A DNA stretch of 64,000 nt from Candidatus Sericytochromatia bacterium (GCA_015272195.1 JACYMC010000173.1:28642-92641); one strand, 5' to 3'. Counted from the first letter of the stretch, positions 26,333 through 44,479 are shown. Numbers and translations are program-made. Notes: generated by a model from the letters alone, not told the origin.

Positions 26333-26435
26333 TGAAGTGCTCCTTGCAGTGATCGCCTGTATTTTAACACGGCTCCTGGCCGTTACAACGCGCTTTTGCT
26401 TGTTTTTCAGGCCTTTGACATGTCAGAATAAAAGA

Positions 26436-26885
26436 ATGAAAGCTTCTGTTTTGTGGCGTATACTCTGCCTGGCCTGGCTGGCGCTGACTGCGAGTGCTCT
26501 GGCTCAGCAGCGCTCGCCTGCAGAGAGTCTGCTGTATCCTGTAGCACCGGTCAGGCAACTGCAGTACGCGAAGGGCCAGACCGTTTATGCGCAGTATCTG
26601 TCTTTGCCGGTTGAGCAGGTCCTCTTGCACTTTTTGCGTCAGGCGCGTGAGCCAGCCTGGCAACTGACCTTTCCTGATGCACTGGAGGCCGAAGCCTGGC
26701 TGCGTGCCTTGCAGCAGAAACCCCAGGAACCTCCTGTCTTTATTTTAAACTTATACCATCTAAAAACAGATGTTAATGTTCACTTAACAATTGGCGGGGT
26801 TCCTGGCACAAGCCCTTCCCGGCCCCGGTCTATAATTACGGTGTACAGTACCAAACACCCTTTGGGTGGGCGTCAGGGAGGATGA
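26436..26885 (+). CDS. Small secreted protein, hypothetical
   Basis: An internal ATG at 26436 gives a signal peptide MKASVLWRILCLAWLALTASALA. The long ORF from 26307 overlaps the divergent gene. Confidence 0.4.
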   Translation: MKASVLWRILCLAWLALTASALAQQRSPAESLLYPVAPVRQLQYAKGQTVYAQYLSLPVEQVLLHFLRQAREPAWQLTFPDALEAEAWLRALQQKPQEPPVFILNLYHLKTDVNVHLTIGGVPGTSPSRPRSIITVYSTKHPLGGRQGG

Positions 26886-28203: not shown

Positions 28204-28307
28204 TTTTAATGTGACGGGCTCCGCTACGGCAGGCAAAAATTTTGTGCTAGAATGGACATGATTTTACCGTAATCGGGACTTATTTTGATGTCGCAAAGGA
28301 ACCCGTC

Positions 28308-31300
28308 ATGAGCAAGTTAGCCAAGCGTTGCAGTGCCCTTTTTATCGCTTCCAGTCTGGGCGGTCTTTTATCTGCCTGTCCTTCTGATCCTCCGCCCAAC
28401 ACCAATGTTCGCCCCATTCCTTCGACACCGCCGGGCCTGATCACACCCACTCCGCCCCCAGGATCGGTGATCCAACCGCCTTCACCGGGTCCGGGTTTGC
28501 CGGGTGACCCTTCACCTTTACCAACCAGCACGCCGGGCACTTCAACGGGCCTGGCCATTGCCACAACGGGCTTGCCGACAGCCGTACTCAACTTTAACTA
28601 CAGTTTTGGCCTGCAGGCCAGCGGCGGCAGCGGCTCTTATAATTGGTCGATTGTATCGGGTAACCTGCCCCGTGAACTGGGTCTGGACCCCAATACAGGC
28701 CAGATTTTTGGCCGTCCTACCCAATCGGGTTCCTTTGAATTTGAGGTCCAGGCGCTCGACAATCAAAGCGGTCAGGTCGCGCGTCAGCGCCTGTTTATTC
28801 TGGTGGCTGACAGTGATGCAGGTGTTAATACCCTCTCTGTTCTGACCAGCACCCTGACTTCGGGCGTGGTGGATCGGGGTTACTCACAGCGTCTGGAAGT
28901 GACCGGTGGGGTAGCCCCTTTCAGCTGGACCATTTCTGCAGGGGCCCTGCCGGACGGCCTGAGCCTCAATACCAACACGGGTGAAATCTCCGGCACACCC
29001 ACCCTGCGTGGCGAAGAAACCTTTACCGTACGTGTAACCGACGGTCAGGGGCGCACCCAGACCCGTACCCTGAGTATTACCATTAACCGAACTGATTCAG
29101 ACATCACGGTGCTTACGGCCAGCCTGCCGCCCGGTGTCAGCGGTACCGCCTACAACCGCACAGCCTGTGGTCAGACTTTTTCAGGTCAGCTGAGCGCGAC
29201 GGGTGGTGACGGTGATTACCGCTGGAGCGTTTCACGCGGTAATCTGCCGCCAGGTCTGACCATGAACAGCAACGGCAGTATTACGGGCACGCCAACGCAG
29301 GTAGGCTCTTATACCTTTACGGTCCGTGTGGATGACGGCGAGGAAAACTCCGCCAGCAAAGTCTTTACGGCTGAAATCAGCCAGGTACTGATTCATAATT
29401 TTACCCCGGATTCCGGTGGTAAAGGGCTGCGCATGACCATTTTTGGCGAAGGCCTCAGCAGCATGGGCGGTGGCACCCAGGTGCGTTTCGGTGATGTGCA
29501 GTCTGTACCGGGCGCTGTGAACACTGTGGTTGACTGTCAGCAGTTTCAGACCAACATTCCTGAAAACGCCAAAACGGGTCTGATTACCCTGCGCAACGGC
29601 ACAACGGATCTGGGCAGCAGCAGCAAGCCTTTTGTGGCTGAGGATGTGGTGATCAACGAGGTCTTTGTCAGTCCCGATGGTTCAGGCAATCAGTTTGTGG
29701 AACTCAAAAACCGCAGCTCAGCCTCTGTCAGCATTGCCGGTTGGTACCTGCACTATACGGGTGAAGATGGCAGTCTGGTCAGTTTCCCTATTCCTCCTGA
29801 AACACCGCCTTTGGCTACCGGCGCGCTGACTGTGATCAACATCGGTCGCAATGGCGGAACTTCCGCGACAGATATTTATACGGGCACGGGCGTACAAGAG
29901 ATGCGCTTTGATCCGCTCAACGGTACGGCCGCCGATGCCCTGACCCGCGTGGCGCTCTGTAAAGACAACCCGGTCAATCCTGGCGAAGTCTGTGCCACTA
30001 GCGCCACGGATACCAAGTACCGTGACTACCTGCAGTTTGGGGGCGCCGCTGTAGATGGCCAGGACCTGGAAAATAACGCGGTCAGCGTGGGTATCTGGTC
30101 CGACGATGCGACCCTGAGTACCACAACACTGGTTGCGCCGCTGAGTGCCGTTTCAGACGATTTTGCCGATGATAACGCAGCCCAGTTTGGTGTGGCCGAA
30201 GCGGGCAACGATAAATCGGGTCTGCTTGTGGATGACGGCAATACAAAGTTTGCGGATTATACAGGTGAAGCTGTGCTTTATTACACCCCCGAGACCGGTA
30301 CCCTGGCTAACCAGCAGCAACGCATCCGCCGCACAGTCACAGGGGTAGGTACTGGTGTTCAGGAAGACCGTGTGCGTTTGAGTGCCCCGATTTTTGAAGC
30401 CAAAATTCAGGCCACCAATACGGGTGATGGCGCTGTGGGCAACGGCATTCTGGTGGATACGGTTGAAATGCTGGGGGCACCTCGCACCACGGCACCGACT
30501 TATGCAGGTGACCTGGTCAATGTGGTTGCCGGTACGGTCCTGCGCACGGTGCTGGGACTGCAGGCTGGCCCCAGAGTTGAGCTGAGTGAGGTGCCCTTTT
30601 CTCCGACAGTGGCTGGTAATGTCAGCGATGGTGTGAATGTCGGTGGCTTTGAAGTGGCTGCGGGCAGCGTCGACCTTGTGACGGGTGCGCAGACGGTCAA
30701 TGTGACCTATGTGCGCAATCCGGGTGATCTGAGCTCTACGCAAAACTTTTCTGTGGTGCGCACGGTCTCTGGACTGAATTCTGCCACCAATCGGATTGCC
30801 ATTACCCAGGCGCTGGCTTCTGCGGCGGTGAGTGCTGACAATGAAGGCGACGGTCTGCCTGGCAGCGAGATTGAACTGACGGCCACGACCAATTTTGCTA
30901 CGGGTGACCGGGCCTTGTTTAACGGTCTGAATTGTGCCAATGCAGCACCCTGTGAATTGACGCTGGGTGGTAATCTGGTGCGTCTGGCTTCTCCGCTGGC
31001 TCAGCTTCAGATTTCAAATGACAATACGGGCAACGGTGAAGAAAGCAGCCGTTTACAGGTAACGCTAGCAAATGCTGATCGTTTCCCGGTTGATGCCAGC
31101 GTGCGTATTAATGGTCAATTACGTCAGATTCAGCAAATAACTCCGTCTTTTGGCGGTACAGAACCTTTGTTTCAGCTGAGCGCGCCTTTTCAGATGACGC
31201 TTAACAATGGAACGCCGCAGGGTGACGGCACCTCAGGCCAGGGTATTGGTGTCACGAGCACTGATGGCTTCCTGGTCAACAACCGTGTCCGGCTGGGTAA

Positions 31301-32063
31301 TGAAGTGCGCCGGATTACGGCGATTGTACCGGGTACACCGCCCCGGATTGAGTTGGATAACCACTTGGGTAACATGACTGTGGCTACGGCCAATGCGGGC
31401 AATGGCTCATCAGCAGCGCCTCTGACCGTAGCTGACGCCACCGGGTTTAGCAGTGGCAATACCGTTCGCTTTGCCGGGTTGAATCAGGTGCGGACCATTA
31501 CTTCAGTGAATGGCAATAACCTGGTGCTCAGTGCACCGGTTTACCGTTCCCTGCAGACCACTGTGGCCCCCGGTAGTCCTGCCGCAAACCAGATTAACCT
31601 GGTCAGTGTGGCTGGCTTGACCGCTGGTGCTAATGGTGACTGGCTTCACTTTGCTGGTGATAATATCCGGCAGATTACGGGCATTGCAGGCAATCAGGTG
31701 ACACTTAATGCGGCTTTGCCGGCGATTCCTGCCGACAATAGCGAAGTGCGCGTTTTGCTCAATGGTGGCGAGCTGAACCGTGTTCCAACGATAGGTAACC
31801 TGACGCCTGTGGGTGTGGGTGGTGACGGTGCGGCGGTGCCTTATAATATCAATTTGGTGCCAACAGCCGGTACCTTTACCCTGGTGCCTTATGATGATGC
31901 GGGCGCCCGTCAGGCCCGCATCAGCCGCATTCCAACCAGTGGTTCGATTTATCTCGCACCCCGGGCGGGCTTTCTGCGCAAGTACCTCTCGATTAAGCTG
32001 ACGGGAGACAATCTGGCTGTGGGCGGTTACACCACCACAACCGCGCCTTCTCCCCGGCAGTAA
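28308..32063 (+). CDS. Giant (1251 aa) surface lipoprotein with a Pro-rich linker, four putative-Ig (He_PIG-like) repeats, an IPT/TIG domain and a lamin-tail (LTD) domain, followed by a ~750 aa Gly/Asn/Thr/Val-rich region
   Basis: The lipobox is LLSAC. Repeats read ...[34 protein letters not shown] / [33 protein letters not shown] / [32 protein letters not shown]. The IPT begins [10 protein letters not shown]. The LTD is [34 protein letters not shown]. Confidence 0.75.
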   Translation: [1251 protein letters not shown]

Positions 32064-32080
32064 GATCCTGTATTAACCTA

Positions 32081-32110
32081 AAAAGCACCCGCATTTTGCG
32101 GGTGCTTTTC
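32081..32110. terminator. Bidirectional rho-independent terminator (AAAAGCACCCGC-attttg-GCGGGTGCTTTTC)
   Basis: A perfect 9 bp GC-rich stem (32084-32092 / 32098-32106) is flanked by an A-run on one side and a T-run on the other. It lies between the convergent 1251 aa gene and the methyltransferase gene. Confidence 0.8.
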
Positions 32111-32136: not shown

Positions 32137-32811
32137 TTAACCGCGTTCGCGGGGCTGTGGCCGAGCTGCCGGTTCTTTTTCGGCGTCGTTTTCAAAATCA
32201 ATAAAGGGAAAGGTGTTGATTTTACGGCCAATCATAATAAAGCTGAGGATATTGAGATAAGGGTTTTTCATCAGCTGGGACAATTGCCGGCTCAGGGTGG
32301 GGACTTGCTGGAGCTGGTAGACCACTTCGTCAATAAACTCAAAGCCACTTTGATCCAGCAGACGCCGCAGCGACTCGTTTGAAAAGTAGCGGATGTGGTT
32401 TTCACGCAGCGCACCGTCATCCTGATACGCCCAGCCTTCACTCATCAGATTGAGGATGGTTGAAATATGCCCGATATTATAGGTGACGGCATAAATCTGG
32501 CCCTGAGGCTGTAAAAACTTGCGCAGCGCCAGTAAGAGCCGGTCAGGATCCAGGGCCTGCTCCAGTGCGTGATACACAATCAGCAGATCATAACTTTTGG
32601 GCGGCAGGCTGAAATCCAGTTCAGGCTGTTCGCGACAGATATCCTGCCATTGTGTGCTTAGCTCATTGAGATAGACAAACTCTTTGCCTTCTGCTGCACA
32701 GAGTGCTGCCAGTTCAGGCAAAGGGTCTCCCAGGCAAAGAATTTTTTTCTGCTCGGGTTTGAGCATGGATTTCAGTTTGGCTTCCATATGCTGACGGTAT
32801 TGCGTATGCAT
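32137..32811 (-). CDS. Class I SAM-dependent methyltransferase, paralogous to the C-terminal domains of the two upstream rSAM-type proteins
   Basis: Motif I is KILCLGDPLPELAALCAAEG. Post-motif II is YDLLIVYHALEQALDPDRLLLALRKFLQPQGQIYAV, compare ILLSHALEKLRDPIALLQSLHAYLKPEGHILCI in the 645 aa protein. The start is taken at internal ATG 32811, 1 nt after the upstream stop. Confidence 0.65.
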   Translation of the reverse strand: MHTQYRQHMEAKLKSMLKPEQKKILCLGDPLPELAALCAAEGKEFVYLNELSTQWQDICREQPELDFSLPPKSYDLLIVYHALEQALDPDRLLLALRKFLQPQGQIYAVTYNIGHISTILNLMSEGWAYQDDGALRENHIRYFSNESLRRLLDQSGFEFIDEVVYQLQQVPTLSRQLSQLMKNPYLNILSFIMIGRKINTFPFIDFENDAEKEPAARPQPRERG

Positions 32812-32812
32812 T

Positions 32813-34768
32813 TTATAACTTCCTTGCAAGCAATTTGATTTCACTCGTATAGAGCAGGTGCTGGGGGACATGACGGGCACTGAAGTGTTCAATGTGCTGA
32901 CTCAGATTCTGCACCAGGGTGCGCATGCTCTCGATTTCCTCGATTGGGGCATGACCTATACTCAGTATTTCCATCTGACAGGCTTTGACCATATCTTCCA
33001 GCTGGGGCTGGGTGATCCAGCGCAGAACCGGGTAGTGTTGCTGGCTGTATTTGACGGGCCAGTCTAGAAATTTCAGCAGGAGGTAAATACACAGCGGATT
33101 CACCACGCTCAAAAAGACTTTACCCCCTGGCTTCAGGCTCTGACTGAGTCGCCGCAGTATTTCAAGTGGGCGACGCAAACCGTTCAGGCTGCCGGGCAGC
33201 AGCAGCATATCCAGTGGTTTTTGCGGCCATTCGCCGTGCAGATGGCCCTGACGAACGTGTAATTGCTGGATGTGATAGCCTTCCAGAAAGGGTTTACAGG
33301 CGGTCTCTGGTTGCAGGACCACTTCCAGCACCTGATCTTCGGGTGTAAAGTGTTCCCTGGCCAGGCTGCGCGCCACAACGGCGCGCCCCCAGTAGATAAT
33401 GTCCCCTTTATGTGGGCCCATAAAGCCCTGCTTTTCTTTGCCCAGGCGGGCAAAGGCATCATAAATTTCATGAAAGACCGCACCGCGCAGCTGGGTGTGG
33501 TAAAGGGGCAATTCCGGTGAAACATTTTCCCAGTCCATGGCATGCCATGGCATGCGCTCCAGAGTGGCGCTATCGGGCTTGTGCTTTTTGGCGTAAGCAT
33601 CCCACATGGGTGTGCCAGGAATCGGGGCCATCAGCGTGGTCTGCAGACGTTCAAACAGATGGTGGTGATCCTGCAGGTAAAGGTAAAACGCTGCCATTTG
33701 CTGGCGTGATGTCTGAGGTTCAGGGTTGAGAAAAACCAGGCCCAGGACATCAATCTGGATTTCTTTACAGGCCAGCAAAACCTGGCTCAGACGTTCCGGG
33801 CTGGCCTGTGACAACAGTTTGTTCTGGTGGCCAAAAGGCGCCAGCTGAAACATGAGTTTACGCACGTTCATGGCTTTGAGCTGTTTTAAAATGCCAGGTG
33901 TCAGCTGTTCCGGAGCGGCTGAAAGAATAAAAAAGATCTGCTGGTGTAATTTGCGCTCCACAATCAGGGCTTGAAGCTCTTTGAGGCGTTCAGGAAAAGC
34001 CAGTAACTGCTGATCGGCAATAAAAACCGGTGAAAAATACATGCGCTGGTGGGCTTCCAGGGGCAAAGACTGAAACAAAAAAGTATAATTGGCCACGATT
34101 TGCTCCAGCTGCTTCAGAAGGCTGACGCTGCTGAGCTGACGTGGCTTACGGGTCGGTGCGTAGGCCAGCGTTGTCAGCAGGTTATCCTGAATCCGGGCGG
34201 TCCGAATCACAGGGGCGCTGAAGCCCGGAAAGTCCAGCCAGAAACGGTAGTTGGGTGTGGGCAACTGGTTAAGGTCGGCAATCATCTGGCCCGGTGTGCC
34301 TGAATACATGCGCCCCTGACTCTGGTAGACAATGCCGGGGATCCGGCGGTAATGGGCACTTGTGGCATCGGGCTGTTTCAGATAGAGTTCCAGCAACTGC
34401 TTCAGCGGTACTTCCACTTCGCCAATAATACCAACGTCTACAGCGGGTGGCAGGCTTTGGGGCAGATATGAAATATGCGGGCCCGCCAGCCAGACAGGAA
34501 TATCCAGATAGGCTTTGATATTTTCGGCCATCGCGCTGGCCAGCTCAAAGCAGGCGCTGGTGGACCACAGCAGAATGACATCCGGGTGTTTGCTGGCCAG
34601 GCTTTTAAGCTCCAGCCCGATCACCGGGGAGACATTGTCGAAGGTCTGCTGAATAAACGGCACGATTTCCGATAGCGCGTGGGCGGCAAAATACTCCAGC
34701 CCACTGGCTTGTATGGCACCTTTTTTAAAGTGCTCTGGTTTAAAAAGAGGAAGCAGTCCTAGTTTCAT
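32813..34768 (-). CDS. Cysteine-less paralogue of the adjacent B12-binding radical-SAM/methyltransferase fusion (B12-like N-domain, degenerate rSAM core, MTase-like C-domain)
   Basis: The architecture is colinear with the 645 aa protein. The B12-domain region IGIIGEVEVPLKQLLELYLKQ matches IGVLGEGEETLFELMQLYQRN. The FTARGCPYKCTFCAS position reads IRTARIQDNLLTTLA, so no CxxxCxxC is present. Confidence 0.6.
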   Translation of the reverse strand: MKLGLLPLFKPEHFKKGAIQASGLEYFAAHALSEIVPFIQQTFDNVSPVIGLELKSLASKHPDVILLWSTSACFELASAMAENIKAYLDIPVWLAGPHISYLPQSLPPAVDVGIIGEVEVPLKQLLELYLKQPDATSAHYRRIPGIVYQSQGRMYSGTPGQMIADLNQLPTPNYRFWLDFPGFSAPVIRTARIQDNLLTTLAYAPTRKPRQLSSVSLLKQLEQIVANYTFLFQSLPLEAHQRMYFSPVFIADQQLLAFPERLKELQALIVERKLHQQIFFILSAAPEQLTPGILKQLKAMNVRKLMFQLAPFGHQNKLLSQASPERLSQVLLACKEIQIDVLGLVFLNPEPQTSRQQMAAFYLYLQDHHHLFERLQTTLMAPIPGTPMWDAYAKKHKPDSATLERMPWHAMDWENVSPELPLYHTQLRGAVFHEIYDAFARLGKEKQGFMGPHKGDIIYWGRAVVARSLAREHFTPEDQVLEVVLQPETACKPFLEGYHIQQLHVRQGHLHGEWPQKPLDMLLLPGSLNGLRRPLEILRRLSQSLKPGGKVFLSVVNPLCIYLLLKFLDWPVKYSQQHYPVLRWITQPQLEDMVKACQMEILSIGHAPIEEIESMRTLVQNLSQHIEHFSARHVPQHLLYTSEIKLLARKL

Positions 34769-34814
34769 GCCGGCATGATATCCGCAGGGGTCAGATCTTA
34801 AAAATTACCCTGTA

Positions 34815-36752
34815 CTATAGCACAGGGGCGGGCTTTTCTGAAGCCCGCAGTATGCGTCCGGCGCTTGTTGACGGGCTTTGTAAAACGCTGAGACAGGTCA
34901 CAGGAATTTCCTGCTGGCTCTGCCCCTCTGCATTCAGTAACTGCAAGGCCTGCTGCATTTTGTCTGACATCTGTACCGGGCTGGCGAGAAGCACCTGAGA
35001 CTGGCTTTCGTGCCAGCGGCTGCGTTTCAGCAGCGGCTGCAGACTCTGGTGACTGATAAAGCGCAGGGCATGGTGGTGGTTGACGCCAAAGGGGCTGGCT
35101 TCCCATTTGCCGCGCAGCAGTTGCTCCATCAGGGCCGGGTGACGGGCGTTATAGTAGATACACAGAATGTGTCCCTCGGGCTTTAGATACGCATGCAGGC
35201 TTTGAAGCAGGGCGATCGGATCGCGCAGTTTTTCGAGGGCGTGGCTGAGCAGAATCGTGGCGTATTGCTGTTTTGCTTCAATGGGCGTGAGTTCCGCTTT
35301 CCCTGAGGCAATGAGGATTTTGGTGACTTTCAGATCGGGCTGCAGATCGGCCAGGCAAAACGCTTCAAAGCCAATTTCGAGAACGGGTCCTTTGATGCTG
35401 ATATCCTCGAGCAGGGTTTTGTAGAGATGCTCAAAGTATTTGCGCTTGGTCAGCCAGGCATGCAGTTGCTGCTTACCGGCCTGCAGTGTGGTCTGAAAGA
35501 CCTGAAAGCGGTCGTAAATGCTTTCAAAGGTCTCTGGTCTCAGGTGCTGATTCATATACACAGAGCGTCCCCGCTCAAAACTGAGGTTAAGGGCATCCCA
35601 GTTTTCAAAGTTGGGGGGCAGAGCACCCAGATCCTGGGCTTGCTTCCAGAGTTCAGTGCCTGGAAAGGGCGTGGCATAGGCGATGGTGGGCTGGGCAAAA
35701 CGGTAGTGATTGCTTTGAATAAACCAGTAGGATCTGGCCATATCCTCTTCGGTTTCTTCGGGTACACCGATCATCATATTGCTGACCACGGGCAAATTAA
35801 AGCGCTCACAAATTTCCAGGGCCCGCTGGTTGTCACGGGCAGAGGTTTTGCCTTTGAGGGCGGTTAAAATGCGATCGCTGGCTGACTCCAGGCCAAAGCA
35901 AACCACCAGCCCGTTCATTTGCACGATCATCCGGGCAATTTCTTCATCAAAGACGCTGGCACGTGCGTTCAGCGAAAAGCCCACTTTTTTGTGCAGGCCT
36001 TTGGCCCGGATGGCATCTACAATGGCCCGCATGCGCTTTTTATTCAAGGGGAAGAGGTCATCATTGATGGGAATAATGCTTTGATCCGGAAAATGGCTGA
36101 CGATGTACTCGATTTCCTGAATCACTCGCTCCACTGAGTGGTAGCGGGTGCGCTGCCAAAAGCGGGTAGAGGCGCAAAAGGTGCACTTGTACGGGCAGCC
36201 CCGTGCGGTAAAAATGGGTTGCTGCCACTGGGTGTCTTTCAGCAATAGCTCCCGATTGGGCATGGGGATGCTGTCCATGTCTTCGATCCAGGCGCGTGGG
36301 GCAGTAATGATACGTTCGCCTTTGTGCCAGAATACCAGGCCATTGATTTTGCTCAGGTTTTCGGGGGTGGCTTCATTGCGCTGGTACAGCTGCATCAGCT
36401 CAAACAGGGTTTCTTCGCCTTCGCCCAGCACGCCAATGTCTACTTCGGGGGGCAGGGTTTCGGGGGCTGCTGAAATATGTTCACCGCCAACGATCAGGGG
36501 CACGCTGGCATCCAGTTGTTTAAAGTGCCGGGCGTGGTGAATGACGTCCTCAAAGGTTTCGGTAAACGAAGACAGACCAATGATATCCGGGCTCTGACGC
36601 AGCAGCGCGTCACGGTTATCGACTTCGAGAATGGTGTCATGAAAGTTGAGGTGGGTTTCAAGATAGGCCGACAGATAGCCGAACGACAGCGGCGCGATAA
36701 AACCCCGATCTTCGTAGTCTTCGCCTTTGAGATACATCATTCCCAGTCGCAT
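34815..36752 (-). CDS. B12-binding radical SAM protein (class B) fused to a C-terminal class I methyltransferase-like domain
   Basis: The N-terminal cobalamin-binding-type domain reads PLIVGGEHISAAPETLPPEVDIGVLGEGEET. The radical-SAM cluster motif is TARGCPYKCTFCAS. The C-terminal ~200 aa are homologous to the stand-alone MTase. A GGAGG SD lies 6 nt upstream. Confidence 0.8.
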   Translation of the reverse strand: MRLGMMYLKGEDYEDRGFIAPLSFGYLSAYLETHLNFHDTILEVDNRDALLRQSPDIIGLSSFTETFEDVIHHARHFKQLDASVPLIVGGEHISAAPETLPPEVDIGVLGEGEETLFELMQLYQRNEATPENLSKINGLVFWHKGERIITAPRAWIEDMDSIPMPNRELLLKDTQWQQPIFTARGCPYKCTFCASTRFWQRTRYHSVERVIQEIEYIVSHFPDQSIIPINDDLFPLNKKRMRAIVDAIRAKGLHKKVGFSLNARASVFDEEIARMIVQMNGLVVCFGLESASDRILTALKGKTSARDNQRALEICERFNLPVVSNMMIGVPEETEEDMARSYWFIQSNHYRFAQPTIAYATPFPGTELWKQAQDLGALPPNFENWDALNLSFERGRSVYMNQHLRPETFESIYDRFQVFQTTLQAGKQQLHAWLTKRKYFEHLYKTLLEDISIKGPVLEIGFEAFCLADLQPDLKVTKILIASGKAELTPIEAKQQYATILLSHALEKLRDPIALLQSLHAYLKPEGHILCIYYNARHPALMEQLLRGKWEASPFGVNHHHALRFISHQSLQPLLKRSRWHESQSQVLLASPVQMSDKMQQALQLLNAEGQSQQEIPVTCLSVLQSPSTSAGRILRASEKPAPVL

Positions 36753-36816
36753 GGCCAGCCTCCTGTCTTATCTTATCAGACCCCATGGCAGAGGGGCTTG
36801 TCAAGCTCGGCTTGCA

Positions 36817-37431
36817 CTAAAGATCCGGTAAAATATTTTTGAGCGGATCAATGCGGATGGCTGACATAGACAATTTGGGATCCAGACCAAACTCTGCCCG
36901 CCGCTCAACATCGTCCGCTTTCAGGCTGACTGTTACGGGGACATTTTTTTGTTTTGGAAACACCAGCTCCTGACTTTGATTGGCCTCCAGCCGGTCAATG
37001 ACTTTTTTAAGTTGACCATATTGAATCACAATGTTTTCGATGGTTTCATCCGATTGATTCACAATAAAAATTGAAGCGCTGTTCTGGCTATGTGGAAAGT
37101 AGCTGTATTGTATAAAGAAGAAGATGCCTGTCAGATTTAACAGCAAAATGGCAGCAGCTAGCGTTAGGGGTTTAGTGAAGCTGTGCTGGGGCCTTTTGGC
37201 TTCAGGCAGCTCGCTGATACGGTTCATTTGTTGATTGAACTGGTTCAGCAAATGCAGGGCAAAAAACCCCCCCAAAACGCTGACTCCCAAACCAAGCCAG
37301 GCCAGCCAGAGATTGGTGCTCAGTTTTAAGCCGAGCCAGAGAAGTATGGGAGCAAAAACAAAAACAAGGTTTTTTCGTTTGAAGGGTTCTGGTTTGAATG
37401 GGTCTGTAGATGTGCTCATGCTAACCGACAA
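36817..37431 (-). CDS. Small membrane protein (3 TM plus a soluble C-terminal domain), hypothetical
   Basis: The TM segments are LVFVFAPILLWLGLKL, LAWLGLGVSVLGGFFALHLL and LTLAAAILLLNLTGIFFFI. It sits between the pilin-like genes and the rSAM genes on the same strand. Its GC is lower than its neighbours. Confidence 0.5.
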   Translation of the reverse strand: MSVSMSTSTDPFKPEPFKRKNLVFVFAPILLWLGLKLSTNLWLAWLGLGVSVLGGFFALHLLNQFNQQMNRISELPEAKRPQHSFTKPLTLAAAILLLNLTGIFFFIQYSYFPHSQNSASIFIVNQSDETIENIVIQYGQLKKVIDRLEANQSQELVFPKQKNVPVTVSLKADDVERRAEFGLDPKLSMSAIRIDPLKNILPDL

Positions 37432-37455
37432 AGATTTGATGTGATGAAAAGGGCT

Positions 37456-38583
37456 TTACAGGTCTCTGGCGTAAGCGGTGTGCAGGTAGGTGATGTCCAC
37501 AAAGCTGTTATGGCTGCTTTGACCCACGGCTGTTGTGCGAATCAGAATCGAGCGGCCGCTGCTGTGGCCCACAATGGCTGTTTCAAATCCCCTCGGAAAG
37601 GTTCCCAGGCTCAGGGCGGGCGTGGTATCGCTGGCCGGTATCACGTCCTGCGCGTTGGGGGGGCATGAGGGCACGGTGGGGTTATAAAAGCCAGGCACGG
37701 GGTTTCTGAGATTCATGGTCTGGCCGCCGTTTCCACTTTGTGTTTGATTGTAGGCAATGCTGTAGCGGGTATCAGATGAGCTGGGGAAGCGAAACACACT
37801 GGTGTGGCGTGCCTTGGGAATCTGAAAAGAAGCCCCTGCGCTGCTCAGACTGGTGCCAGCCCCTGCAACATTATAAAATGCGGTATTGGCATTGGCTGAA
37901 GACCGTTCCCAGGCAAAGTTAATGTTGTTGCTAATCAAGTCGCTGCGAATCGTGGACGCACTGCCCGGGAACAAGGTCAGCAGGCGTTCAAGTTGTTCTG
38001 CAGAGACGAAGCGCACACTTCGCCACTCAATCAAACGCTGACCCTGAAACACATTGTTCCCCTGATAAATGTCGTAGTCTGTATCATCGCTGATATAAAT
38101 ATATTTAAAGACATAGACATCAACCCGGGCGTCTATGCCGCCGCTGAAATCTCTGAAGGTGTCATCCAGTTCAGCGTACAGCAGCGCATTGCCCACACTG
38201 TTGGCCCGAAAAAAGTTCTCTGGCGACACAGCGCAGGTTTTTTCAATAGCCAGTGAACCAGACACCCGAATCGTTGGCAAGGTTGAGTCAGGGATAATGG
38301 CGGGTGAATCGCTCAGGCTGATTTTATTGCGATAGGCATTCCCCAGGGTGTCGTTGCCAAAGACCGCTTTGGCCTGGTTGAGGCCTTTGCTGAGGCGAAT
38401 GCTGCCTGACTGGAGCTCACTTTTAACCACAGCATACAGCTGTGTCACGTTATGTGAGCGCCAGCTGGTTTGCAGAAAGCTTACGCAGAGGGCGACCAGC
38501 GTAACCAGAATGGCCATGGCAATCATCAGCTCGACCAGTGAAAAACCTTTGGACCTTTTGAGGGTGTTTATGGTTTTACTCAT
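37456..38583 (-). CDS. Type IV pilin-like (minor pilin/pseudopilin) protein, 375 aa
   Basis: The prepilin N-terminal cleavage/methylation motif is KGFSLVELMIAMAILVTLVAL (Gly-1, Phe+1, Glu+5). Its start overlaps the upstream stop (ATGA). Confidence 0.8.
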   Translation of the reverse strand: MSKTINTLKRSKGFSLVELMIAMAILVTLVALCVSFLQTSWRSHNVTQLYAVVKSELQSGSIRLSKGLNQAKAVFGNDTLGNAYRNKISLSDSPAIIPDSTLPTIRVSGSLAIEKTCAVSPENFFRANSVGNALLYAELDDTFRDFSGGIDARVDVYVFKYIYISDDTDYDIYQGNNVFQGQRLIEWRSVRFVSAEQLERLLTLFPGSASTIRSDLISNNINFAWERSSANANTAFYNVAGAGTSLSSAGASFQIPKARHTSVFRFPSSSDTRYSIAYNQTQSGNGGQTMNLRNPVPGFYNPTVPSCPPNAQDVIPASDTTPALSLGTFPRGFETAIVGHSSGRSILIRTTAVGQSSHNSFVDITYLHTAYARDL

Positions 38584-41500
38584 CGGTTGATGGTCACCAG
38601 CACATCGTGATAGCCATAGCCCATTTCAGGAAAGCCTGCTCTGTAAACCTCTGCGCGCAGCAGATAGTTACCTTGCGGCAAGGTGCTGACGTCCCAGTTT
38701 ACAGTCGGTTGGGCTTTTTCAGACGCATCCAGTGTGTAGGGGCTAAACAGGCTTTTGGCTGGGTTGTACTGGTCTACCATTTCACGCGGCACTTCAGTAC
38801 CGTCATCGGCATAGCGCCAGGTGCGGCCGTTGTCGACGGAATACTTCAGGTTATAGACCAGGGGCGTGGTGTCCCACCAGTTGTCTGGGTAAGCCTGGGA
38901 GTATTTTTCGTTATCCCAGCGCTTCCAGGCCGTGGTGAAGTTGACCTCAATGCTGGCGGGATCGTCATAAGCGCGTTGTGCAGTGGGTGAGGTGATCTCA
39001 ATACGCGGTAACTGAACCGTACGGCCCGGGGCATCCCCTGGTATCGAAAGGTCACCCGCATCCATAAAGGTCTGCAGCGTACCGGCCTGTGACATGCGGG
39101 CCATCAGCATGACCCCTGTACCCGAGGTATTGGCAAAGCCATTGAGTAAGACATAGCCTGCCATTTCGTCACGCCCGCTGCGGGTCATTTTGACCATGCC
39201 GCTGGCAGTATTGGAGCTGCTGGAGTGGCGGTAATAGGTGTTTTGTCTGTTGGCCGTGCTGTCTACTGTGCCTGCACCGCTGTTAACAAAGCCCAGGGTA
39301 TTGCGCAGGCTGCTGATTTCAGGGTCGCCGTAACCACCAATCCCGCCGGTTGCGCCAGAGTCGATGGTAAAAGGGCGATTGGACGTGACGGTGTCAGGCA
39401 GGGTCAGGTTAAAGGCCCGGACCAGCAGGCGGCCCGCTTCGCCGGCGTCACCGTTTAAGACCGCATTGCCACCGGTGAAGCTGTGATTCACACGGCGATT
39501 GCCGCTGCCCGTGGGGTTACCGTTCATAAAACCACCTGAGCCAGTATGTTTCATGCGTCGCCGCCGGGTGCCGCTCAGCGCATAGGGGCCATTATCGACC
39601 GGTGATCTGAAGAAGCGGCGGTTATTCGTGGGCTCTGCGCTGGAGCGGTTGTGCGTTCCACTGACATATGAATGGTTGGGTAGGTTGCCGTTATCCACCC
39701 AGAACTGATAATCCTGATCCGGAAACAGCTCCTTTTGGGTGGGTTGAGCCCGCCAGCGCTCGTTGCCGCCGCCGGGAGTCGTATCGTCGGTGCTCAGGAT
39801 CGTGCGCCGTTCATCCCCTGTAATCTCGTTGATCAGGTTGTTGCTATTCGCCACGCTGCTGCCATCGGGACTTTGGCTCCAGGGCTGGCGACGAATCTGA
39901 AAGACTGCGTTGGTGCCGTCTGTACCCAGCTCCCCGCCAAGGGCGTGGTAATAATTGCTGTAACCGGAAACACTGTTGTAAATAGCGTTAGAGCGCAACA
40001 GGCCATGGTTAAAGAACTGAAAGTACCAGTTGAGATCCGTATCAATGCCTGAGAAGCTGGGGCCGCTGTTGCGGCTGAAGCCTTCTACACCTTTGTTGTT
40101 GGGGCCGCCCCAGTGGCGGCTGTAGCGATGGCGGACCTTGACATCGAGGTAAGGGGTATACAAAGCATCGCCGAGGTACTGGGCCTGCTCCACCTGGGGG
40201 ACCAAAAGGCTGTTGGCCGGCGGTGTGGTGGCTTCGAGAGTGAAAATATGCCCCATATAAGTGTAGGTTCGCGATACGTTATACAGGTGCGGGCGCATAT
40301 CCCGCTCATTTTCGTTGACGGGTGTTGCAGGGTTATTGGGCACATGCACATCACCGTCTCCCCAGACACCATCACAAAGCTCACGAATGGTGAGCGGACA
40401 GCCCAGCTCGTCGCTGTCGGGGGCGTTGCGATAAGGCGCTTCCCGGCGGGAAGCTGCCGGCGCGTCAGGATCAGCATCATTATGAACGATGCGGGTTTCA
40501 AGGGTCAGCTGCTGGCTGTTAAAATTGCTGCCCAGCACGCTGGCGCCTGTGTCAAGTGCCACGCGCCAGCGCGCGGTGTTTTTATAGCGGTCGCTATTGC
40601 CCTCTCTCAGATCGCGATCGTCAAAAGAGTCTGTGCCGTCATCTGCAACGGGTGCGGGAATGTATTCCAGTCCGTACAAGCGGCGGTCCTTGCGCAAGCC
40701 CGTGTTGCTGGGGCCGATAGGATGGCGTGTAGGCGTATCGTACAGCATCACCCGATAGCCACGCTGGGGAGCTCCCATCATCGTTTCGTCAATGGCTTCA
40801 ACGCTGAAGTCGCGATGACGCGTGACCGTCACCCCTGCAGGGACGGAGAGTGCTTGATTGGTTTGAATAACGGCTGTGGGTCCTGAGATGGCATTCACCT
40901 CGTTAATTCTGACGATCTGCTCATTGGCTCCGCCGGGATCGAGCACGATCAGCTGACCTCTGAGGTCGTCTCTGGCATCTGTGAGGCTGGCGCCCGCCAG
41001 GTCAGAGCTCCAGGTATTCAGCGTCAGGGTGGTGCCTGTTGCGGGCGCGGACGTCTGGCCCAGGATGCGGGCGGGGTAAAGGCAATCTGTTTCAGTCGCA
41101 CCAGGGGTGCAGCTCGGATCGTGGTTATCGGTAATCCGGCTGACGTTGGTACGCCCCTCATGCCGGCTGCTGTCGGTGCTCCAGCGCCGGTAGCGCACGT
41201 TTTCGCCGCCCACAATGCGTTCAATTTTGAGGGGGTTATTGGTAGACGTAAAGTCTGCGGGCGTAAAATTGGGGTAACGCAGGTAGCCGGGTCGGGTGAA
41301 GTCGTTATAGTTAGGCCCCTGACCGATGGTGGGAATAAAGAGTGAGGTTTTGGGAATCGAGTGGTCTTCTGGACTAACGGAGCTGCTGTAGCCTGTGTCG
41401 CCAGGGTTGCTCAGACGGTTTTCGCCAGGGTTAAGCTGCTCGTATGCATAGACACGCCAGGCGACTTCTGCGCCATTGTCGTAACGCAGATTTTCTGGAT

Positions 41501-42908
41501 GACTGACCACGCGTTTGTTTTGCAGTGAAACGTAGTTGGGGTCTATTTCGGTATCGCCGTTGCTTTGTTTGGCGGCAGGGAGGCTGGCCACATCGGGTGC
41601 GGGCGTACCGTTCAGTTTGAGAGCGATCTGATCGGGCTGCTTGGCCGGGTCAGAGTAGTTGCGGATCGGGGGCAAAGGCAGCAATTCGCCGTGCAGATTG
41701 ATGACAATCGCGTTGCGATAGCGCATTTCACCGCCCTGCATGGGGTCACCGTTATCGTTTAAGGGTGTGTTGAGATCTTCCAGGAAGTTGACCAGTGAGG
41801 GGTTGCGCGCAAAGAAGGGATCTGTAGTGGACAGACGTTTTTCCATGGCCAGTTGTTCGGGCCAGCGCATGACGTGGTTAAACTGGTCGGCCATGGCGTA
41901 GGGGCGGTAACCTGTAGCGTGTCCGGGCACATTAAATCCATTCACGTCATAGTGAGGGTGGTTGTTATTGACATGGGGAAAACGGGTGGTGTCGTCAGTA
42001 CGCACCCGTCCGCGAATGGCTGCCAGGGGGTAGTTCTCGTTGATGCTGCTATGGTTGATGCGCCCAGGATACAGGTAGATCCAGGGTAAAGGCTGATCAT
42101 TGGCTTCGTCAGCATCGTTGATGTAGGGCATATAATAAGGGTCGCGTCCATATCCCAAACGTGTGACAAAATGGCGGCGATAACGTAAGCCAGGGTTGCG
42201 TTGCTCCAAATCGGTCAGGGTCCGCTCAAAACTGGGGCGTAGATCCGCCAGGTCAACCCACCAGCTGGGGGCGTTTTCCATGGCAAGAATAAAGACATCA
42301 ACCACCTGGGTTGGGGGGGCGGCGGTCAGGTTGGTTTTGAGGATACCAGCCACAGATGCCAGGGGTTTGGGCAGGTCTTCGTTACTGTTGGGATCATAAC
42401 CAACCGGCAAATCGTTATTGTTGGGATCGGCATACCAGACAGACACTTTGACAAAGCGGGCAAACTCGTCGTTAGGTACCGGGTTGACCTGAACCTGGCG
42501 TACAAACTTCCACTTACCGCTGTTGCGCTGGTTGGCGCTGATCGGATCCCCCGGATCGTCAATCGATCTGGAAACCAGACCGTCAGGGCTATCGACCTCT
42601 TTGCGTTCGGTACTCAGAACATTGTTAAAGCGGGAACCGTCACTGAAGTTCTGCAGTTTGCTGATATCCGTTTCACGGTTGGCCTGAACAAAGGAACGCA
42701 GCTCCTCGAACATTTGTGTGGCTTTCTGAGCAGCAAAGGTGCGATCATTAACGCTGGTGGTGCGCTGCATGACCGTGGTTTGGACCGCCACAGCGCCGCC
42801 CACAGCCACCGAGAGCATGGCACTTGCCACCAGGACTTCCATCAAAGAAAAACCGCGTTGATTGCGGGTTTTGGTCCCTTTTTTCTTGTTTCGCTGGATC
42901 ATACTCAC
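38580..42908 (-). CDS. Giant (1442 aa) pilin-fused protein; candidate pilus tip adhesin/minor pilin
   Basis: Its N-terminus QRGFSLMEVLVASAMLSVAVGGAV is a class III prepilin signal with Glu+5. The body is long and Asn/Asp/Gly/Pro-rich with no further TM. ATGA overlaps lie at both ends (42905-42908 and 38580-38583). Confidence 0.75.
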   Translation of the reverse strand: MSMIQRNKKKGTKTRNQRGFSLMEVLVASAMLSVAVGGAVAVQTTVMQRTTSVNDRTFAAQKATQMFEELRSFVQANRETDISKLQNFSDGSRFNNVLSTERKEVDSPDGLVSRSIDDPGDPISANQRNSGKWKFVRQVQVNPVPNDEFARFVKVSVWYADPNNNDLPVGYDPNSNEDLPKPLASVAGILKTNLTAAPPTQVVDVFILAMENAPSWWVDLADLRPSFERTLTDLEQRNPGLRYRRHFVTRLGYGRDPYYMPYINDADEANDQPLPWIYLYPGRINHSSINENYPLAAIRGRVRTDDTTRFPHVNNNHPHYDVNGFNVPGHATGYRPYAMADQFNHVMRWPEQLAMEKRLSTTDPFFARNPSLVNFLEDLNTPLNDNGDPMQGGEMRYRNAIVINLHGELLPLPPIRNYSDPAKQPDQIALKLNGTPAPDVASLPAAKQSNGDTEIDPNYVSLQNKRVVSHPENLRYDNGAEVAWRVYAYEQLNPGENRLSNPGDTGYSSSVSPEDHSIPKTSLFIPTIGQGPNYNDFTRPGYLRYPNFTPADFTSTNNPLKIERIVGGENVRYRRWSTDSSRHEGRTNVSRITDNHDPSCTPGATETDCLYPARILGQTSAPATGTTLTLNTWSSDLAGASLTDARDDLRGQLIVLDPGGANEQIVRINEVNAISGPTAVIQTNQALSVPAGVTVTRHRDFSVEAIDETMMGAPQRGYRVMLYDTPTRHPIGPSNTGLRKDRRLYGLEYIPAPVADDGTDSFDDRDLREGNSDRYKNTARWRVALDTGASVLGSNFNSQQLTLETRIVHNDADPDAPAASRREAPYRNAPDSDELGCPLTIRELCDGVWGDGDVHVPNNPATPVNENERDMRPHLYNVSRTYTYMGHIFTLEATTPPANSLLVPQVEQAQYLGDALYTPYLDVKVRHRYSRHWGGPNNKGVEGFSRNSGPSFSGIDTDLNWYFQFFNHGLLRSNAIYNSVSGYSNYYHALGGELGTDGTNAVFQIRRQPWSQSPDGSSVANSNNLINEITGDERRTILSTDDTTPGGGNERWRAQPTQKELFPDQDYQFWVDNGNLPNHSYVSGTHNRSSAEPTNNRRFFRSPVDNGPYALSGTRRRRMKHTGSGGFMNGNPTGSGNRRVNHSFTGGNAVLNGDAGEAGRLLVRAFNLTLPDTVTSNRPFTIDSGATGGIGGYGDPEISSLRNTLGFVNSGAGTVDSTANRQNTYYRHSSSSNTASGMVKMTRSGRDEMAGYVLLNGFANTSGTGVMLMARMSQAGTLQTFMDAGDLSIPGDAPGRTVQLPRIEITSPTAQRAYDDPASIEVNFTTAWKRWDNEKYSQAYPDNWWDTTPLVYNLKYSVDNGRTWRYADDGTEVPREMVDQYNPAKSLFSPYTLDASEKAQPTVNWDVSTLPQGNYLLRAEVYRAGFPEMGYGYHDVLVTINR

Positions 42909-44131
42909 TCCACCTCAATGATTGAATAGGAAAGGTTGTTTTCGCGGTATAGACCCAGTCTGTTCTGGGTGTTGCGCACAATATTGTGATTGTATTCGAT
43001 ACTGGTATTGCCGGACGTGGCATTACAGTTCATGCGACCGGTGATAACGGCCCCACTGAGGGAGTTATCGCGCCCAACAGTCAGTTGGCCAGTAACATAA
43101 ATGATGCCGGTGAACAGGGAGTTGCTGTTGTTTTTCAACGTCAGGTTGCCATTGACATAAAGCAAGCCCTCTCCTGCCAGAGGCTTTTCTGGTGTAAAGG
43201 TAAAATTGCCCTGCAGATAGGTGATCGAAAAGGGCAAGCGTTCGGGCAGGCTGTTGACATTGGTGTAAACACGGTCTGATAAGCCTCTCAGCTCATTGTC
43301 TGTCACCCCAAAAAAGACTTCGGTTGTGAGCTGTTCTGGGTTTGACTCCCGCATGGCAAGGCCGCCGGGTGTAATTAAGGTTGCTGAAGGCAAAGAACCA
43401 CCTGAAAAATAATTGATGGCGCTGGTTGCATCATCGTCACCAATCAGATGGCAGCGGCTGCCAAAAGTATGGCCGCCACTGGATGCAGTCACGCTGACGG
43501 GCGAAGTGGGGGCGCGCATGGCAATACGCACAATTTCGCTTTTAACAGCAGCACGGCTTAAAATGCGGTTGGGCGCGTCTTCAGGGCCGGTATTAAAGCT
43601 GTAGGAATCACTGTTTTTGGTGAAGTCGTTGCGTATATAAACAATGCCTTCGCTGAAAATTGACCATACCGTGCCGTTGGGAATGCTGCTGCCGGCTGTT
43701 TTGGCACGTTGCACGCTGACATCCCGAACCAGCTGTGTACTGGCTGTGCTGCAGTCGCTGCGGGGAACAATATAGCGTCCATAAATATTGCCGGAGATCT
43801 GATAATCCCGCACAATACCCTGGCTCTCATCGATCGTTTCAGAAACCAGCTCGTCATCACTGTAAACCGGAGCAAAACCTTCATCTGCACAGCTGGAAGA
43901 AGCAGGAGCCTGAACGGGTTGTTGATCCTGATTCTTGAACCAGCCAATGGCATCCTGAAGACCGGCTTGCGCCACGTTACTGGCCTGGGCGTGGTCTGTA
44001 AATTCTTTGCTGGTGTCTTTGAGTGATTGAATGACCAGCCGCGTTGAGGCTGCACCCAGCAAAAGCATAACGGTTGTTAACATGAGCACGGTTGCGATGG
44101 CCAGGCCTGATTCATGATGGTGCTTGCGCAT
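42905..44131 (-). CDS. PilX-like minor pilin-family protein (PilX N-terminal domain)
   Basis: The N-terminus is MRKHHHESGLAIATVLMLTTVMLLLGAASTRLVIQSLKD. A GGGGAAAGAG SD lies upstream of ATG 44131; the ORF is open to 44197. Confidence 0.65.
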   Translation of the reverse strand: MRKHHHESGLAIATVLMLTTVMLLLGAASTRLVIQSLKDTSKEFTDHAQASNVAQAGLQDAIGWFKNQDQQPVQAPASSSCADEGFAPVYSDDELVSETIDESQGIVRDYQISGNIYGRYIVPRSDCSTASTQLVRDVSVQRAKTAGSSIPNGTVWSIFSEGIVYIRNDFTKNSDSYSFNTGPEDAPNRILSRAAVKSEIVRIAMRAPTSPVSVTASSGGHTFGSRCHLIGDDDATSAINYFSGGSLPSATLITPGGLAMRESNPEQLTTEVFFGVTDNELRGLSDRVYTNVNSLPERLPFSITYLQGNFTFTPEKPLAGEGLLYVNGNLTLKNNSNSLFTGIIYVTGQLTVGRDNSLSGAVITGRMNCNATSGNTSIEYNHNIVRNTQNRLGLYRENNLSYSIIEVE

Positions 44132-44410
44132 GCATCTCTTTCCCCACATCGTCTGTGCGCGTTCACCTGCTGACGAAAGCGTGTGGGAAAAGGCCATGCA
44201 GGAAGCCTGGCATTCATGATTTAGCTATCGCGTGCACAGGATAAGCAGGTGGGTTCCTGCGACCTGTTGCGATAATCATCGAACTGTCCTGAGAGAGAAA
44301 GACAGCCGGGTTCCACTTACACTAACGACATCTGAGAGAACAAACACATGGATTCGTTTGATGATCTTATTATAGGCGCAGGGTTTAAGTTTTGTAAATA
44401 GGTGTTCAGC

Positions 44411-44447
44411 TTAAAAAAAATAAAGCTGATGCTTTGAACATCAGCTT
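44411..44447 (-). terminator. Rho-independent terminator downstream of ftsZ (stem AAGCTGATG/CATCAGCTT, loop ctttgaa, followed on the minus strand by a T8 tract)
   Basis: A perfect 9 bp stem at 44423-44431/44439-44447 has its A-run at 44413-44420 on the plus strand, which is the U-tract for the minus-strand transcript. It lies 33 nt after the ftsZ stop. Confidence 0.8.
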
Positions 44448-44479
44448 TAATCAGGGTTTAAGCTTGCTAAGGTGTCAGC

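Follow-up and report, generated by a model that had tools for sequence, protein, structure and literature searches.

Gene content of the block

The window analysed here is a stretch of 64,000 nucleotides (nt) of DNA from Candidatus Sericytochromatia bacterium (GCA_015272195.1 JACYMC010000173.1:28642-92641), and the block of interest within it comprises seven open reading frames (ORFs), designated A to G, which all lie on the minus strand between the terminator of ftsZ and a bidirectional terminator. The genes A-B-C encode minor-pilin-like proteins, and the genes E-F-G encode a cobalamin (B12)-dependent radical S-adenosylmethionine (SAM) enzyme, its cluster-less paralogue and a stand-alone methyltransferase-like protein, respectively. 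The original prediction, made from the sequence alone, had coupled the two sets, and their synteny was indeed found at about 14 loci of Sericytochromatia. ORF calling placed the seven genes, with short or overlapping junctions, where they had been predicted, and scoring with the hidden Markov models (HMMs) of Pfam and NCBIfam bore out the calls of genes and domains, among them that of the very large pilin fusion and that of the Cys-less paralogue. The genes are as follows.

42905..44197, minus strand: gene A, ORF of 430 residues; PilX/GspK-like minor pilin with DUF7305-like C-terminus
38580..42908, minus strand: gene B, 1442 residues from GTG or 1440 residues from ATG at 42902; giant modular pilin
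37456..38583, minus strand: gene C, 375 residues; PilW/GspJ-like minor pilin with the leader ...KRSKG/FSLVEL
36817..37431, minus strand: gene D, about 200 residues; membrane protein; about three transmembrane segments, small soluble domain at the C-terminus
34815..36752, minus strand: gene E, 645 residues; B12-binding domain, radical-SAM core and C-terminal Methyltransf_23-like domain
32813..34768, minus strand: gene F, 651 residues; full-length paralogue of E (22-28% identity)
32137..32811, minus strand: gene G, 224 residues; stand-alone Methyltransf_23-like protein, a homologue of the domains at the C-termini of E and F

The products of genes E and B were 100% identical to MBF2054382.1 and MBF2054385.1, respectively, from a Candidatus Sericytochromatia metagenome-assembled genome (MAG). 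By direct reading, B and C share an ATGA overlap (38583-38580) and F and G are separated by a 1-nt gap (32812), both as predicted; the ATGA predicted for the A/B junction was found to be GTGA (42908-42905). The better start of B is the ATG at 42902, which is preceded by a ribosome-binding site (GAGGTGGAG) and gives the 1440 residues of the NCBI entry MBF2054385.1. The remaining gaps are 24 nt (C-D), 64 nt (D-E) and 46 nt (E-F).

Linkage of the pilin genes and the radical-SAM genes across loci

The arrangement of A-B-C followed by E-F-G on one strand was found at L001, L004, L007, L010, L011, L014, L015, L020, L023, L038 and L039, and partly at L009. Across these linked loci, E was 52-89% and A, B and C were 30-79% identical to their counterparts in the window. 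At every locus of E-F-G with visible upstream DNA, a minor-pilin triad was situated directly upstream, in three upstream and two downstream contexts. The upstream contexts were ftsQ-ftsZ (most loci), the genes for an S9 peptidase, an OmpA protein and a methyltransferase (L020, L038), and those for a histidine kinase and a membrane protein (L005/L037). One downstream context consisted of convergent genes for a He_PIG/lamin-tail-domain (LTD) lipoprotein and an RcpC-like protein, and the other of convergent genes for a Glyco_trans_1_2 protein, a KedN5-like B12 radical-SAM enzyme, a zinc-ribbon protein and FtsH. The gaps between C and E were short (roughly 20-140 nt), and no terminator was seen between C or D and E in any locus.

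The locus L005/L037 (Blackallbacteria CG17 type; G protein P0255) differs in its pilins. Its E, F and G were 72, 66 and 84% identical to those of L007, respectively, and the genes upstream of them, on the same strand and about 100 nt away, encode small PilX-, PilV- and PilW-like pilins of 358, 201 and 254 residues that are unrelated to A-B-C beyond the N-terminal helix. A chance juxtaposition with this second triad is improbable. Both events that removed ftsZ (L020/L038 and L005/L037) left a minor-pilin triad beside E-F-G. A metagenome scan with a profile of F yielded only one locus, L037, which matches L005 in type and adds no new context.

Two side observations concern these neighbourhoods. 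The PilX-like protein of the small-pilin variant (L005 7129-8205) has long repeats of the GGSKDS type and a segment rich in Cys and His, ICHVPPGNP. In the window, the convergent operon downstream of G (26307-32063, plus strand) encodes a 192-residue protein, a SAF/RcpC (CpaB-like) protein of 445 residues and a predicted lipoprotein of 1251 residues with He_PIG Ig domains and an LTD; the RcpC and He_PIG/LTD genes also lie beside G in L001, L004, L009, L010, L011 and L039, the He_PIG/LTD gene is found in L038 as well, and both are absent in the group-2 loci.

Gene D had been counted among the parts of the system in the original prediction, and this did not hold. Only the window and its closest relative, L039 (88% identical), carry D between C and E, and all other loci lack it; the D product is 56% identical between these two, as against 74-89% for the neighbouring genes, and it gave no family match in Pfam or NCBIfam. 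Given this confinement and fast divergence, D was rejected as a component; it is a lineage-specific insertion and no conserved part of the system.

Proteins of the pilin cassette

A single hydrophobic segment, at the N-terminus, is present in each of the products of A, B and C. By the sequence criterion for type IV pilins (class III leader, Glu+5 and HMM threshold), B and C pass and A fails. B begins with a PilV/GspI-like pilin module (leader ...NQRG/FSLMEV) and scored 26.2 bits with Pfam N_methyl (threshold 21.2), and C scored 30.3 bits with the same model; both also exceeded the cut-off of TIGR02532, and C had weak ComGE and GspJ matches. The matches of A to PilX_N (17.4 bits; threshold 25.5) and DUF7305 (19.5 bits) were both sub-threshold, and Glu+5 is missing; homologues of A hold the same position in every cassette, other phyla included. 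The true start of A is probably M17 or M23. Assignment of the three as GspI/GspJ/GspK or PilV/PilW/PilX equivalogs was rejected on the NCBIfam scores (PilV 36.8 vs 52.2, GspI 16.9 vs 44.4, GspJ 17.3 vs 64.9). No other GFxxxE protein or major pilin, and no gene for a prepilin peptidase, assembly ATPase, platform protein or secretin, was found in the window.

In the AlphaFold2 model of residues 1-600 of B, a 55-residue helix (22-76) and five strands (102-191) were predicted with a confidence score (pLDDT) above 90; a Foldseek search of the N-terminal model against the PDB gave nothing significant (EpsI, 2ret_C, E = 1.4). The second module of about 1,240 residues contains Ig/FN3-like sandwich domains and was modelled confidently with no overall PDB match, so that its predicted overall fold is a novel one. 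The PilY1-like propeller, for which the original prediction had proposed to look in this protein, was rejected, as neither a Pfam match (Neisseria_PilC) nor a structural match was obtained.

A search for the family of B returned 259 matches at E <= 1e-5, from Elusimicrobia, Planctomycetota, Thermoanaerobaculia and others; the members listed have 1,000-1,660 residues and many are annotated as prepilin-type proteins. The giant size that had been singled out in the prediction, far beyond ordinary minor pilins, is therefore not unusual in itself. Residues 15-490, 717-810 and 877-1442 of B are the stretches conserved within the family, and the family alignments A3 and A4 show a large number of polar residues in the large module that do not vary between phyla, including those of the motifs LGYGRDPYY, NLHGELLPxPPxRNYSD (NLHGE...RNYSD), GDPRHxPYxD and GYNWYF. 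Because these invariant polar residues span the phyla, the large module may hold a binding or catalytic site at a filament tip, as the alignments suggest, rather than being a passive adhesin stalk. At three loci of other phyla (Elusimicrobia, Planctomycetota and another lineage), homologues of A, B and C follow one another as they do here, in some cases as duplicates, and none of the three loci has radical-SAM genes nearby. A literature search returned nothing relevant on the Verru_Chthon cassette.

Replacement of the cassette by recombination

Among L014, L015 and L023, the proteins E, F and G were 96-100% identical, and A, B and C were only 34-63% identical. Comparison of L014 with L015 at the nucleotide level gave 84% identity up to the start of A, no detectable identity across A-B-C, and 93% again beginning 108 nt ahead of E; one recombination break point accordingly lies where A begins and the other some 100 nt before E, and the pair L014 and L023 is mosaic inside B. 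The identity matrices correlated well within E-F-G (r = 0.87-0.97) and poorly between B and E (r = 0.16). From these comparisons of sequence, A-B-C is read as a hypervariable cassette of Sericytochromatia that is replaced as a unit between conserved flanks, and in this pattern it seems to behave like an antigenically variable surface locus.

Properties of the enzyme trio

Gene E scored above the Pfam thresholds for B12-binding (46.3 bits vs 32.1), Radical_SAM (64.2 vs 29.5) and Methyltransf_23 (42.7 vs 27). Its motif C186-x3-C190-x2-C193 retains all three Cys in 22 sequences, and the solved structures closest to it were CysS, TokK and AprD4 (E-values 4e-15 to 1e-10), with a C-terminal domain resembling 3cc8. 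As it combines an N-terminal cobalamin domain with a CxxxCxxC core, it agrees with the sequence criterion of class-B radical-SAM enzymes and is predicted to be an intact member of this class and a candidate catalytic methylase. No curated NCBIfam subfamily was reached: the generic best models, BchE and HpnJ, gave 120 vs 481 bits and 109 vs 578 bits, respectively, both far below cut-off, and among the models for ribosomally synthesized and post-translationally modified peptides (RiPPs), ApyD gave 111 bits vs 750 (1e-32) and rSAM_ocin_1 gave 72 vs 282; the methyl-coenzyme M reductase (MCR) glutamine methyltransferase model matched at 1e-26. A RiPP maturation system was rejected, as there was no Pfam match to a RiPP recognition element (RRE) or PqqD, no precursor-like ORF was noted and the subfamily scores were below cut-off.

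Gene F is collinear with E, lacks CxxxCxxC in 9/9 orthologues examined and gave no Radical_SAM match; its matches to B12-binding (20.5 bits vs 32.1) and Methyltransf_23 (25.2 vs 27) were sub-threshold. By these features, F is predicted not to be a radical-SAM enzyme and is presumed to be a non-radical partner or pseudoenzyme. Gene G (Methyltransf_23 39.9 bits vs 27) encodes the best-conserved protein of the block (57-89% identity) and aligned to 3cc8 over residues 64-165 only. All G orthologues carry, after the methyltransferase-like domain, a strongly conserved acidic tail, (I/V)N(T/S)FPFID(F/Y)E(D/N)D, which may be a docking motif. In E, F and G the Methyltransf_23 HMM covers the C-terminal half of the domain only, and motif I is degenerate: it reads VLEIGFE in E and ILCLGDP (ILCLGDPLPE) in G, and F lacks it. 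As transmembrane segments are missing from E and G, and F has just a marginal hydrophobic stretch at residues 551-569 within the methyltransferase-like domain, the trio is probably located in the cytoplasm.

Full-length E-type fusions were found almost exclusively in Sericytochromatia MAGs, and G-like proteins formed 3 clusters only at 50% identity among 1.84 billion representatives, the named ones being from Sericytochromatia. At least two further paralogue families of the B12 radical-SAM/methyltransferase-like fusion are present in this lineage (L002/L003, L017-L019, L021, L022; L006, L008), one about 50% identical to E and adjoining a TPR-GT41 (OGT-like) protein, the other about 37% identical to E, adjoining a DnaJ-domain protein and a cytidine/tRNA deaminase, and lying downstream of peptide deformylase in L006. 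Such fusions are accordingly read as a lineage-specific expansion in Sericytochromatia.

Non-coding element upstream of E and transcription of the block

Two features lie at the ends of gene E.

36753..36816, minus strand: conserved non-coding element with TTGACA (36804-36799), an 18-nt partly palindromic spacer, TnnGAT and an AGGAGG ribosome-binding site
34808..34827, minus strand: stem-loop CCCTGTGC-TATA-GTACAGGG across the stop codon of E, followed in the window by a T-rich tract

The pattern CTTGACA-N18-TnnGAT is kept without change in six loci (the window, L039, L001, L004, L010 and L011), between which E is only 59-89% identical, and a different conserved motif (TGTAAAGA) is found upstream of E in the group-2 loci, L005, L038 and L020. 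The element could act as a promoter or an operator, or else as an RNA element. The 72-nt stretch containing the stem-loop folded at -19.8 kcal/mol (z = -1.9). The hairpin is kept in L039 and the T-tract is not, so it is probably no conserved terminator; an internal terminator at this site was rejected, the E-F gaps elsewhere being only 12-45 nt. A single transcription unit had been proposed for the block. The shared strand, the short gaps and the lack of a terminator before E agree with the proposal, and since no terminator precedes the element, read-through from C or D into E-F-G is possible; the conserved candidate promoter or operator upstream of E speaks against it, and a single unit is not assured.

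Boundaries and surroundings of the block

Both hairpins that had been predicted to bound the block are present in the sequence, and a candidate promoter was located between the upper one and gene A.

44421..44449, minus strand: intrinsic terminator of ftsZ, a 13-bp stem and then a T8 run; bounds the block upstream
44369..44398, minus strand: sigma-70-like promoter candidate TTTACA-18-TATAAT with 11/12 consensus matches, about 170 nt upstream of A
32081..32110, strand not assigned: bidirectional terminator AAAAAGCACCCGC-ATTTT-GCGGGTGCTTTT, a GC-rich hairpin between A and T runs; downstream boundary of the block

The hairpin at 32081-32110, which is common to the block and the convergent He_PIG/LTD lipoprotein gene, was identified by eye and was not in the output of the motif scanner. 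Promoter-like sites numbered 9 in the region (8.0 +/- 3.0 in shuffles) and terminator-like sites 23 (15.4 +/- 4.1 in shuffles); as these counts were not above those of shuffles, weight was placed only on the two individually strong sites. Upstream of the block lies the dcw cluster (mraY, murD, ftsW, murG, murC, murB, ftsQ, ftsZ). Rfam at gathering thresholds gave no riboswitch or known RNA in the block, the sole match in the window being a tRNA-Val elsewhere. The GC content of the block (0.52-0.57) was not anomalous, and horizontal transfer as judged from composition was rejected. Near the start of the window (56-2338, plus strand), a 760-residue protein with two tandem Ser/Thr protein-kinase domains is encoded.

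Possible function of the trio and competing explanations

In the explanation proposed here, A-B-C would encode the tip or priming subcomplex of a type IV filament, with A as the PilX/GspK-like cap, B as the PilV/GspI-like pilin displaying the module of about 1,240 residues and C as the PilW/GspJ-like pilin. E would be an active cobalamin radical-SAM C-methylase, F its cluster-less paralogue and G a third methyltransferase-like copy; the three may form a complex, and together they could constitute a clade-specific cytoplasmic accessory set for the filament, comparable to the tfpO-type genes beside pilin alleles. Most likely, the trio would methylate a cytoplasmic sugar or a lipid-linked glycan precursor that is later put on the filament subunits or the surface. 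That E-F-G is functionally coupled to the filament in any way, for which genome comparisons with a small number of independent events speak, is plausible and yet somewhat less likely than not; that the coupling runs via a glycan precursor is unlikely when taken by itself; and that E-F-G is the first B12 radical-SAM modification system for a type IV filament, acting on the N-terminal segment of the tip pilins or on a glycan as a constant module with interchangeable, antigenically variable tip cassettes, must be called rather unlikely.

The glycan-precursor tailoring is favoured over a direct methylation of the pilins because of the glycosyltransferase neighbours of the outgroup and the paralogues, the Wzy_C gene of L038 and the cytoplasmic location of the trio. 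Among the relatives of E outside Sericytochromatia whose loci were examined, the closest was that of L026 (36% identity), where the genes were GT4, B12 radical-SAM, GT2, class I methyltransferase, PMT_2, PMT_2, B12 radical-SAM, GT4 and GT4, and the context at L027 resembled it; in the genomes of Sericytochromatia, E paralogues adjoin a TPR-GT41 protein or a Glyco_trans_1_2 protein. Directly upstream of A-B-C in L038, on the same strand, are a GspG/PilA-like pilin of 165 residues and then a Wzy_C (O-antigen-ligase-like) gene and a methyltransferase gene. Their counterparts in the window lie divergent from mraY (53866-58675, plus strand) and encode a Wzy_C/TPR protein of 753 residues, a class I methyltransferase of 235 residues and an S9 peptidase of 615 residues, which were 34, 47 and 67% identical to the L038 proteins, respectively; the methyltransferase and the S9 peptidase also occur in L020, and the Wzy_C and methyltransferase orthologues (53866-56831) are on the far side of the dcw cluster from the block. 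Of the alternatives left by the original prediction, which had named modification of the pilus as well as tailoring of a surface lipid or glycan, glycan tailoring is now better supported circumstantially and direct methylation of the pilins less so.

The main rival overall is full independence, namely that E-F-G is a cytoplasmic methylation system of its own that flanks, as a conserved stretch, the downstream side of a hypervariable pilin island, as ftsZ does the upstream side, with recombination in the flanks preserving the adjacency; this is possible, and slightly less likely than a coupling. It would account for the near-identical E-F-G that accompany divergent A-B-C in L014, L015 and L023, the break points at the flanks, the poor correlation between B and E, the conserved element before E, and the E paralogues that stand alone in unrelated contexts. 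A number of points weigh in the same direction, against a coupling. Adjacency alone is weak evidence, as ftsZ is equally conserved upstream in most loci, and the lack of breaks between C and E is not statistically compelling because only 3-4 border rearrangements were observed. Since A-B-C is swapped between conserved flanks, E-F-G might be merely one flank of a recombination hot spot. The cassettes of other phyla do without E-F-G, and the TTGACA element suggests that E-F-G may be transcribed or regulated separately. The block contains no glycosyltransferase, flippase or sugar-nucleotide gene, and ordinary SAM-dependent methyl transfer by the three methyltransferase-like domains is doubtful, motif I being degenerate in all three. 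At L012 (1-1848), an E orthologue of 62% identity, truncated at the contig end, has no F or G downstream and is followed by genes for biotin carboxylase and MurJ and a secretin gene; a rearrangement of the locus, a fourth paralogue or a join made in assembly may explain this. Independence is less easily reconciled with the fact that the loss of ftsZ adjacency in L020/L038 and L005/L037 left E-F-G beside pilins both times, that the pilins of L005 are non-orthologous, contrary to a model in which E-F-G is only a flank, and that the strand is shared, the gaps are short and a terminator is missing between C or D and E throughout.

Within a coupling, the main alternative to glycan tailoring is direct methylation of the conserved pilin N-terminus: E-F-G would C-methylate, possibly N- or O-methylate, the pilin polypeptides via the class III signal peptide and N-terminal helix, or act on unfolded proteins before export. 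We consider this improbable. Besides the pilins, the block encodes no candidate substrates, and the swapped cassettes have only the N-terminal segment in common with the L005 pilins; one family of E paralogues lies beside peptide deformylase and a DnaJ-domain protein, and radical-SAM enzymes paired with a cluster-less paralogue occur in peptide-maturation systems. Class-B radical-SAM enzymes are known to methylate proteins and peptides, examples being Mmp10 (PMC8828468), the MCR glutamine C-methyltransferase (PMC9401015) and the polytheonamide enzymes (reviewed in PMC9692996), and the sub-threshold matches of E to ApyD and to the MCR glutamine methyltransferase point to the same kind of reaction. 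On the other side, no RRE-like domain or precursor peptide was found and the NCBIfam matches are all far below cut-off, and the closest outgroup context of E (L026) is glycan synthesis. The insertion of pilins is co-translational and their globular domains are located in the periplasm, so that only a few N-terminal residues would be reachable from the cytoplasm, and the apparently cytoplasmic location of the trio argues against methylation of variable pilin surfaces; such a surface is an unlikely substrate also because near-identical E-F-G (96-100%) accompany A-B-C alleles of 34-63%. A last explanation, that E-F-G belongs to a natural-product or RiPP-like, lipid or tetrapyrrole pathway together with D or an unannotated small ORF, is very improbable: many class-B radical-SAM enzymes do act on small molecules, hopanoids and tetrapyrroles, and the generic best models of E (BchE, HpnJ) are of this kind, but none of the NCBIfam scores comes near its cut-off, other biosynthetic genes are missing from the block, D is absent beyond the closest relative, no precursor-like ORF was seen, and a BchE role is implausible because Sericytochromatia are not phototrophs.

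The known modifications of type IV filaments are N-terminal methylation by the prepilin peptidase, O-glycosylation and the addition of phospho-forms. If glycan-precursor tailoring or another form of coupling is true, a pilin-tied cobalamin radical-SAM set would represent a chemically different modification, and it would give the first functional lead for the expansion of B12 radical-SAM/methyltransferase fusions in Sericytochromatia, the non-photosynthetic sister lineage of the oxygenic cyanobacteria. With the A-B-C cassette, a family of giant modular pilins is defined that is widespread and so far uncharacterised, and that in Sericytochromatia forms a swappable surface cassette.

Comparison with known systems

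Three pilin-like proteins encoded together, one of them without Glu+5 (GspK or PilX, and here A), are typical of the GspI-GspJ-GspK and PilV-PilW-PilX tip complexes, whose expected role is the priming or capping of the filament, and the N-termini of B and C had weak PilV/GspI and GspJ matches. In contrast to PilVWX, a PilY1-type propeller protein is missing here, a bulky module is fused to the PilV-like subunit and the equivalog thresholds were missed; by this analogy, A-B-C appears to resemble these complexes in organisation only. B itself resembles the modular type IV pilins, such as PilB and PilC of S. sanguinis and CofB of enterotoxigenic Escherichia coli (PMC8179133), in which a pilin module likewise carries a grafted module that is presumably displayed at the tip. 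Modular pilins are widespread and many of the added modules have no database signatures (Raynaud et al. 2021, PMC8179133). B is such a pilin in an extreme form: its extra module has about 1,240 residues, as compared with 860 in total for the most extreme case cited, gave no Pfam domain or overall PDB match, and is encoded in a fixed three-gene cassette with PilX-like and PilW-like partners.

E shares the N-terminal B12 domain and the CxxxCxxC core with CysS, TokK, Mmp10, the MCR glutamine C-methyltransferase, GenK and Fom3, and differs from these class-B methylases in the fused class I methyltransferase-like domain with a degenerate SAM motif and in the pairing with a full-length cluster-less paralogue and a stand-alone methyltransferase-like copy. 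The Hps loci of filamentous cyanobacteria likewise have pseudopilin genes beside carbohydrate-modifying genes, and belong to the cyanobacterial lineage; membership of the present block in this group was rejected, as only C matched HpsC (13.8 bits vs 200), B had no HpsA match and the block has no glycosyltransferases.

The groups of pilA alleles in Pseudomonas aeruginosa are accompanied by tfpO, tfpW, tfpY or tfpZ as linked accessory genes. These pilin islands, and the pilA-tfpO/PglL pairs of pilin O-glycosylation (PMC9829042, PMC3643930), also hold variable pilins between conserved flanks and have modification genes adjoining, and the pair of pilin and Wzy_C genes in L038 recalls pilA-tfpO. 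In the block analysed here, by contrast, the accessory set is constant and the pilins vary, minor rather than major pilins are adjoined, and a cytoplasmic B12 radical-SAM set takes the place of a periplasmic oligosaccharyltransferase. The prediction that no described type IV pilus or type II secretion locus has a cobalamin radical-SAM set attached agreed with the literature search, in which nothing was found that links pilins to radical-SAM or cobalamin enzymes, or Sericytochromatia to pili or radical SAM. The association of A-B-C with E-F-G thus appears to be undescribed so far, while the kind of locus to which it belongs, a pilin locus with adjacent accessory modification genes, is already known.

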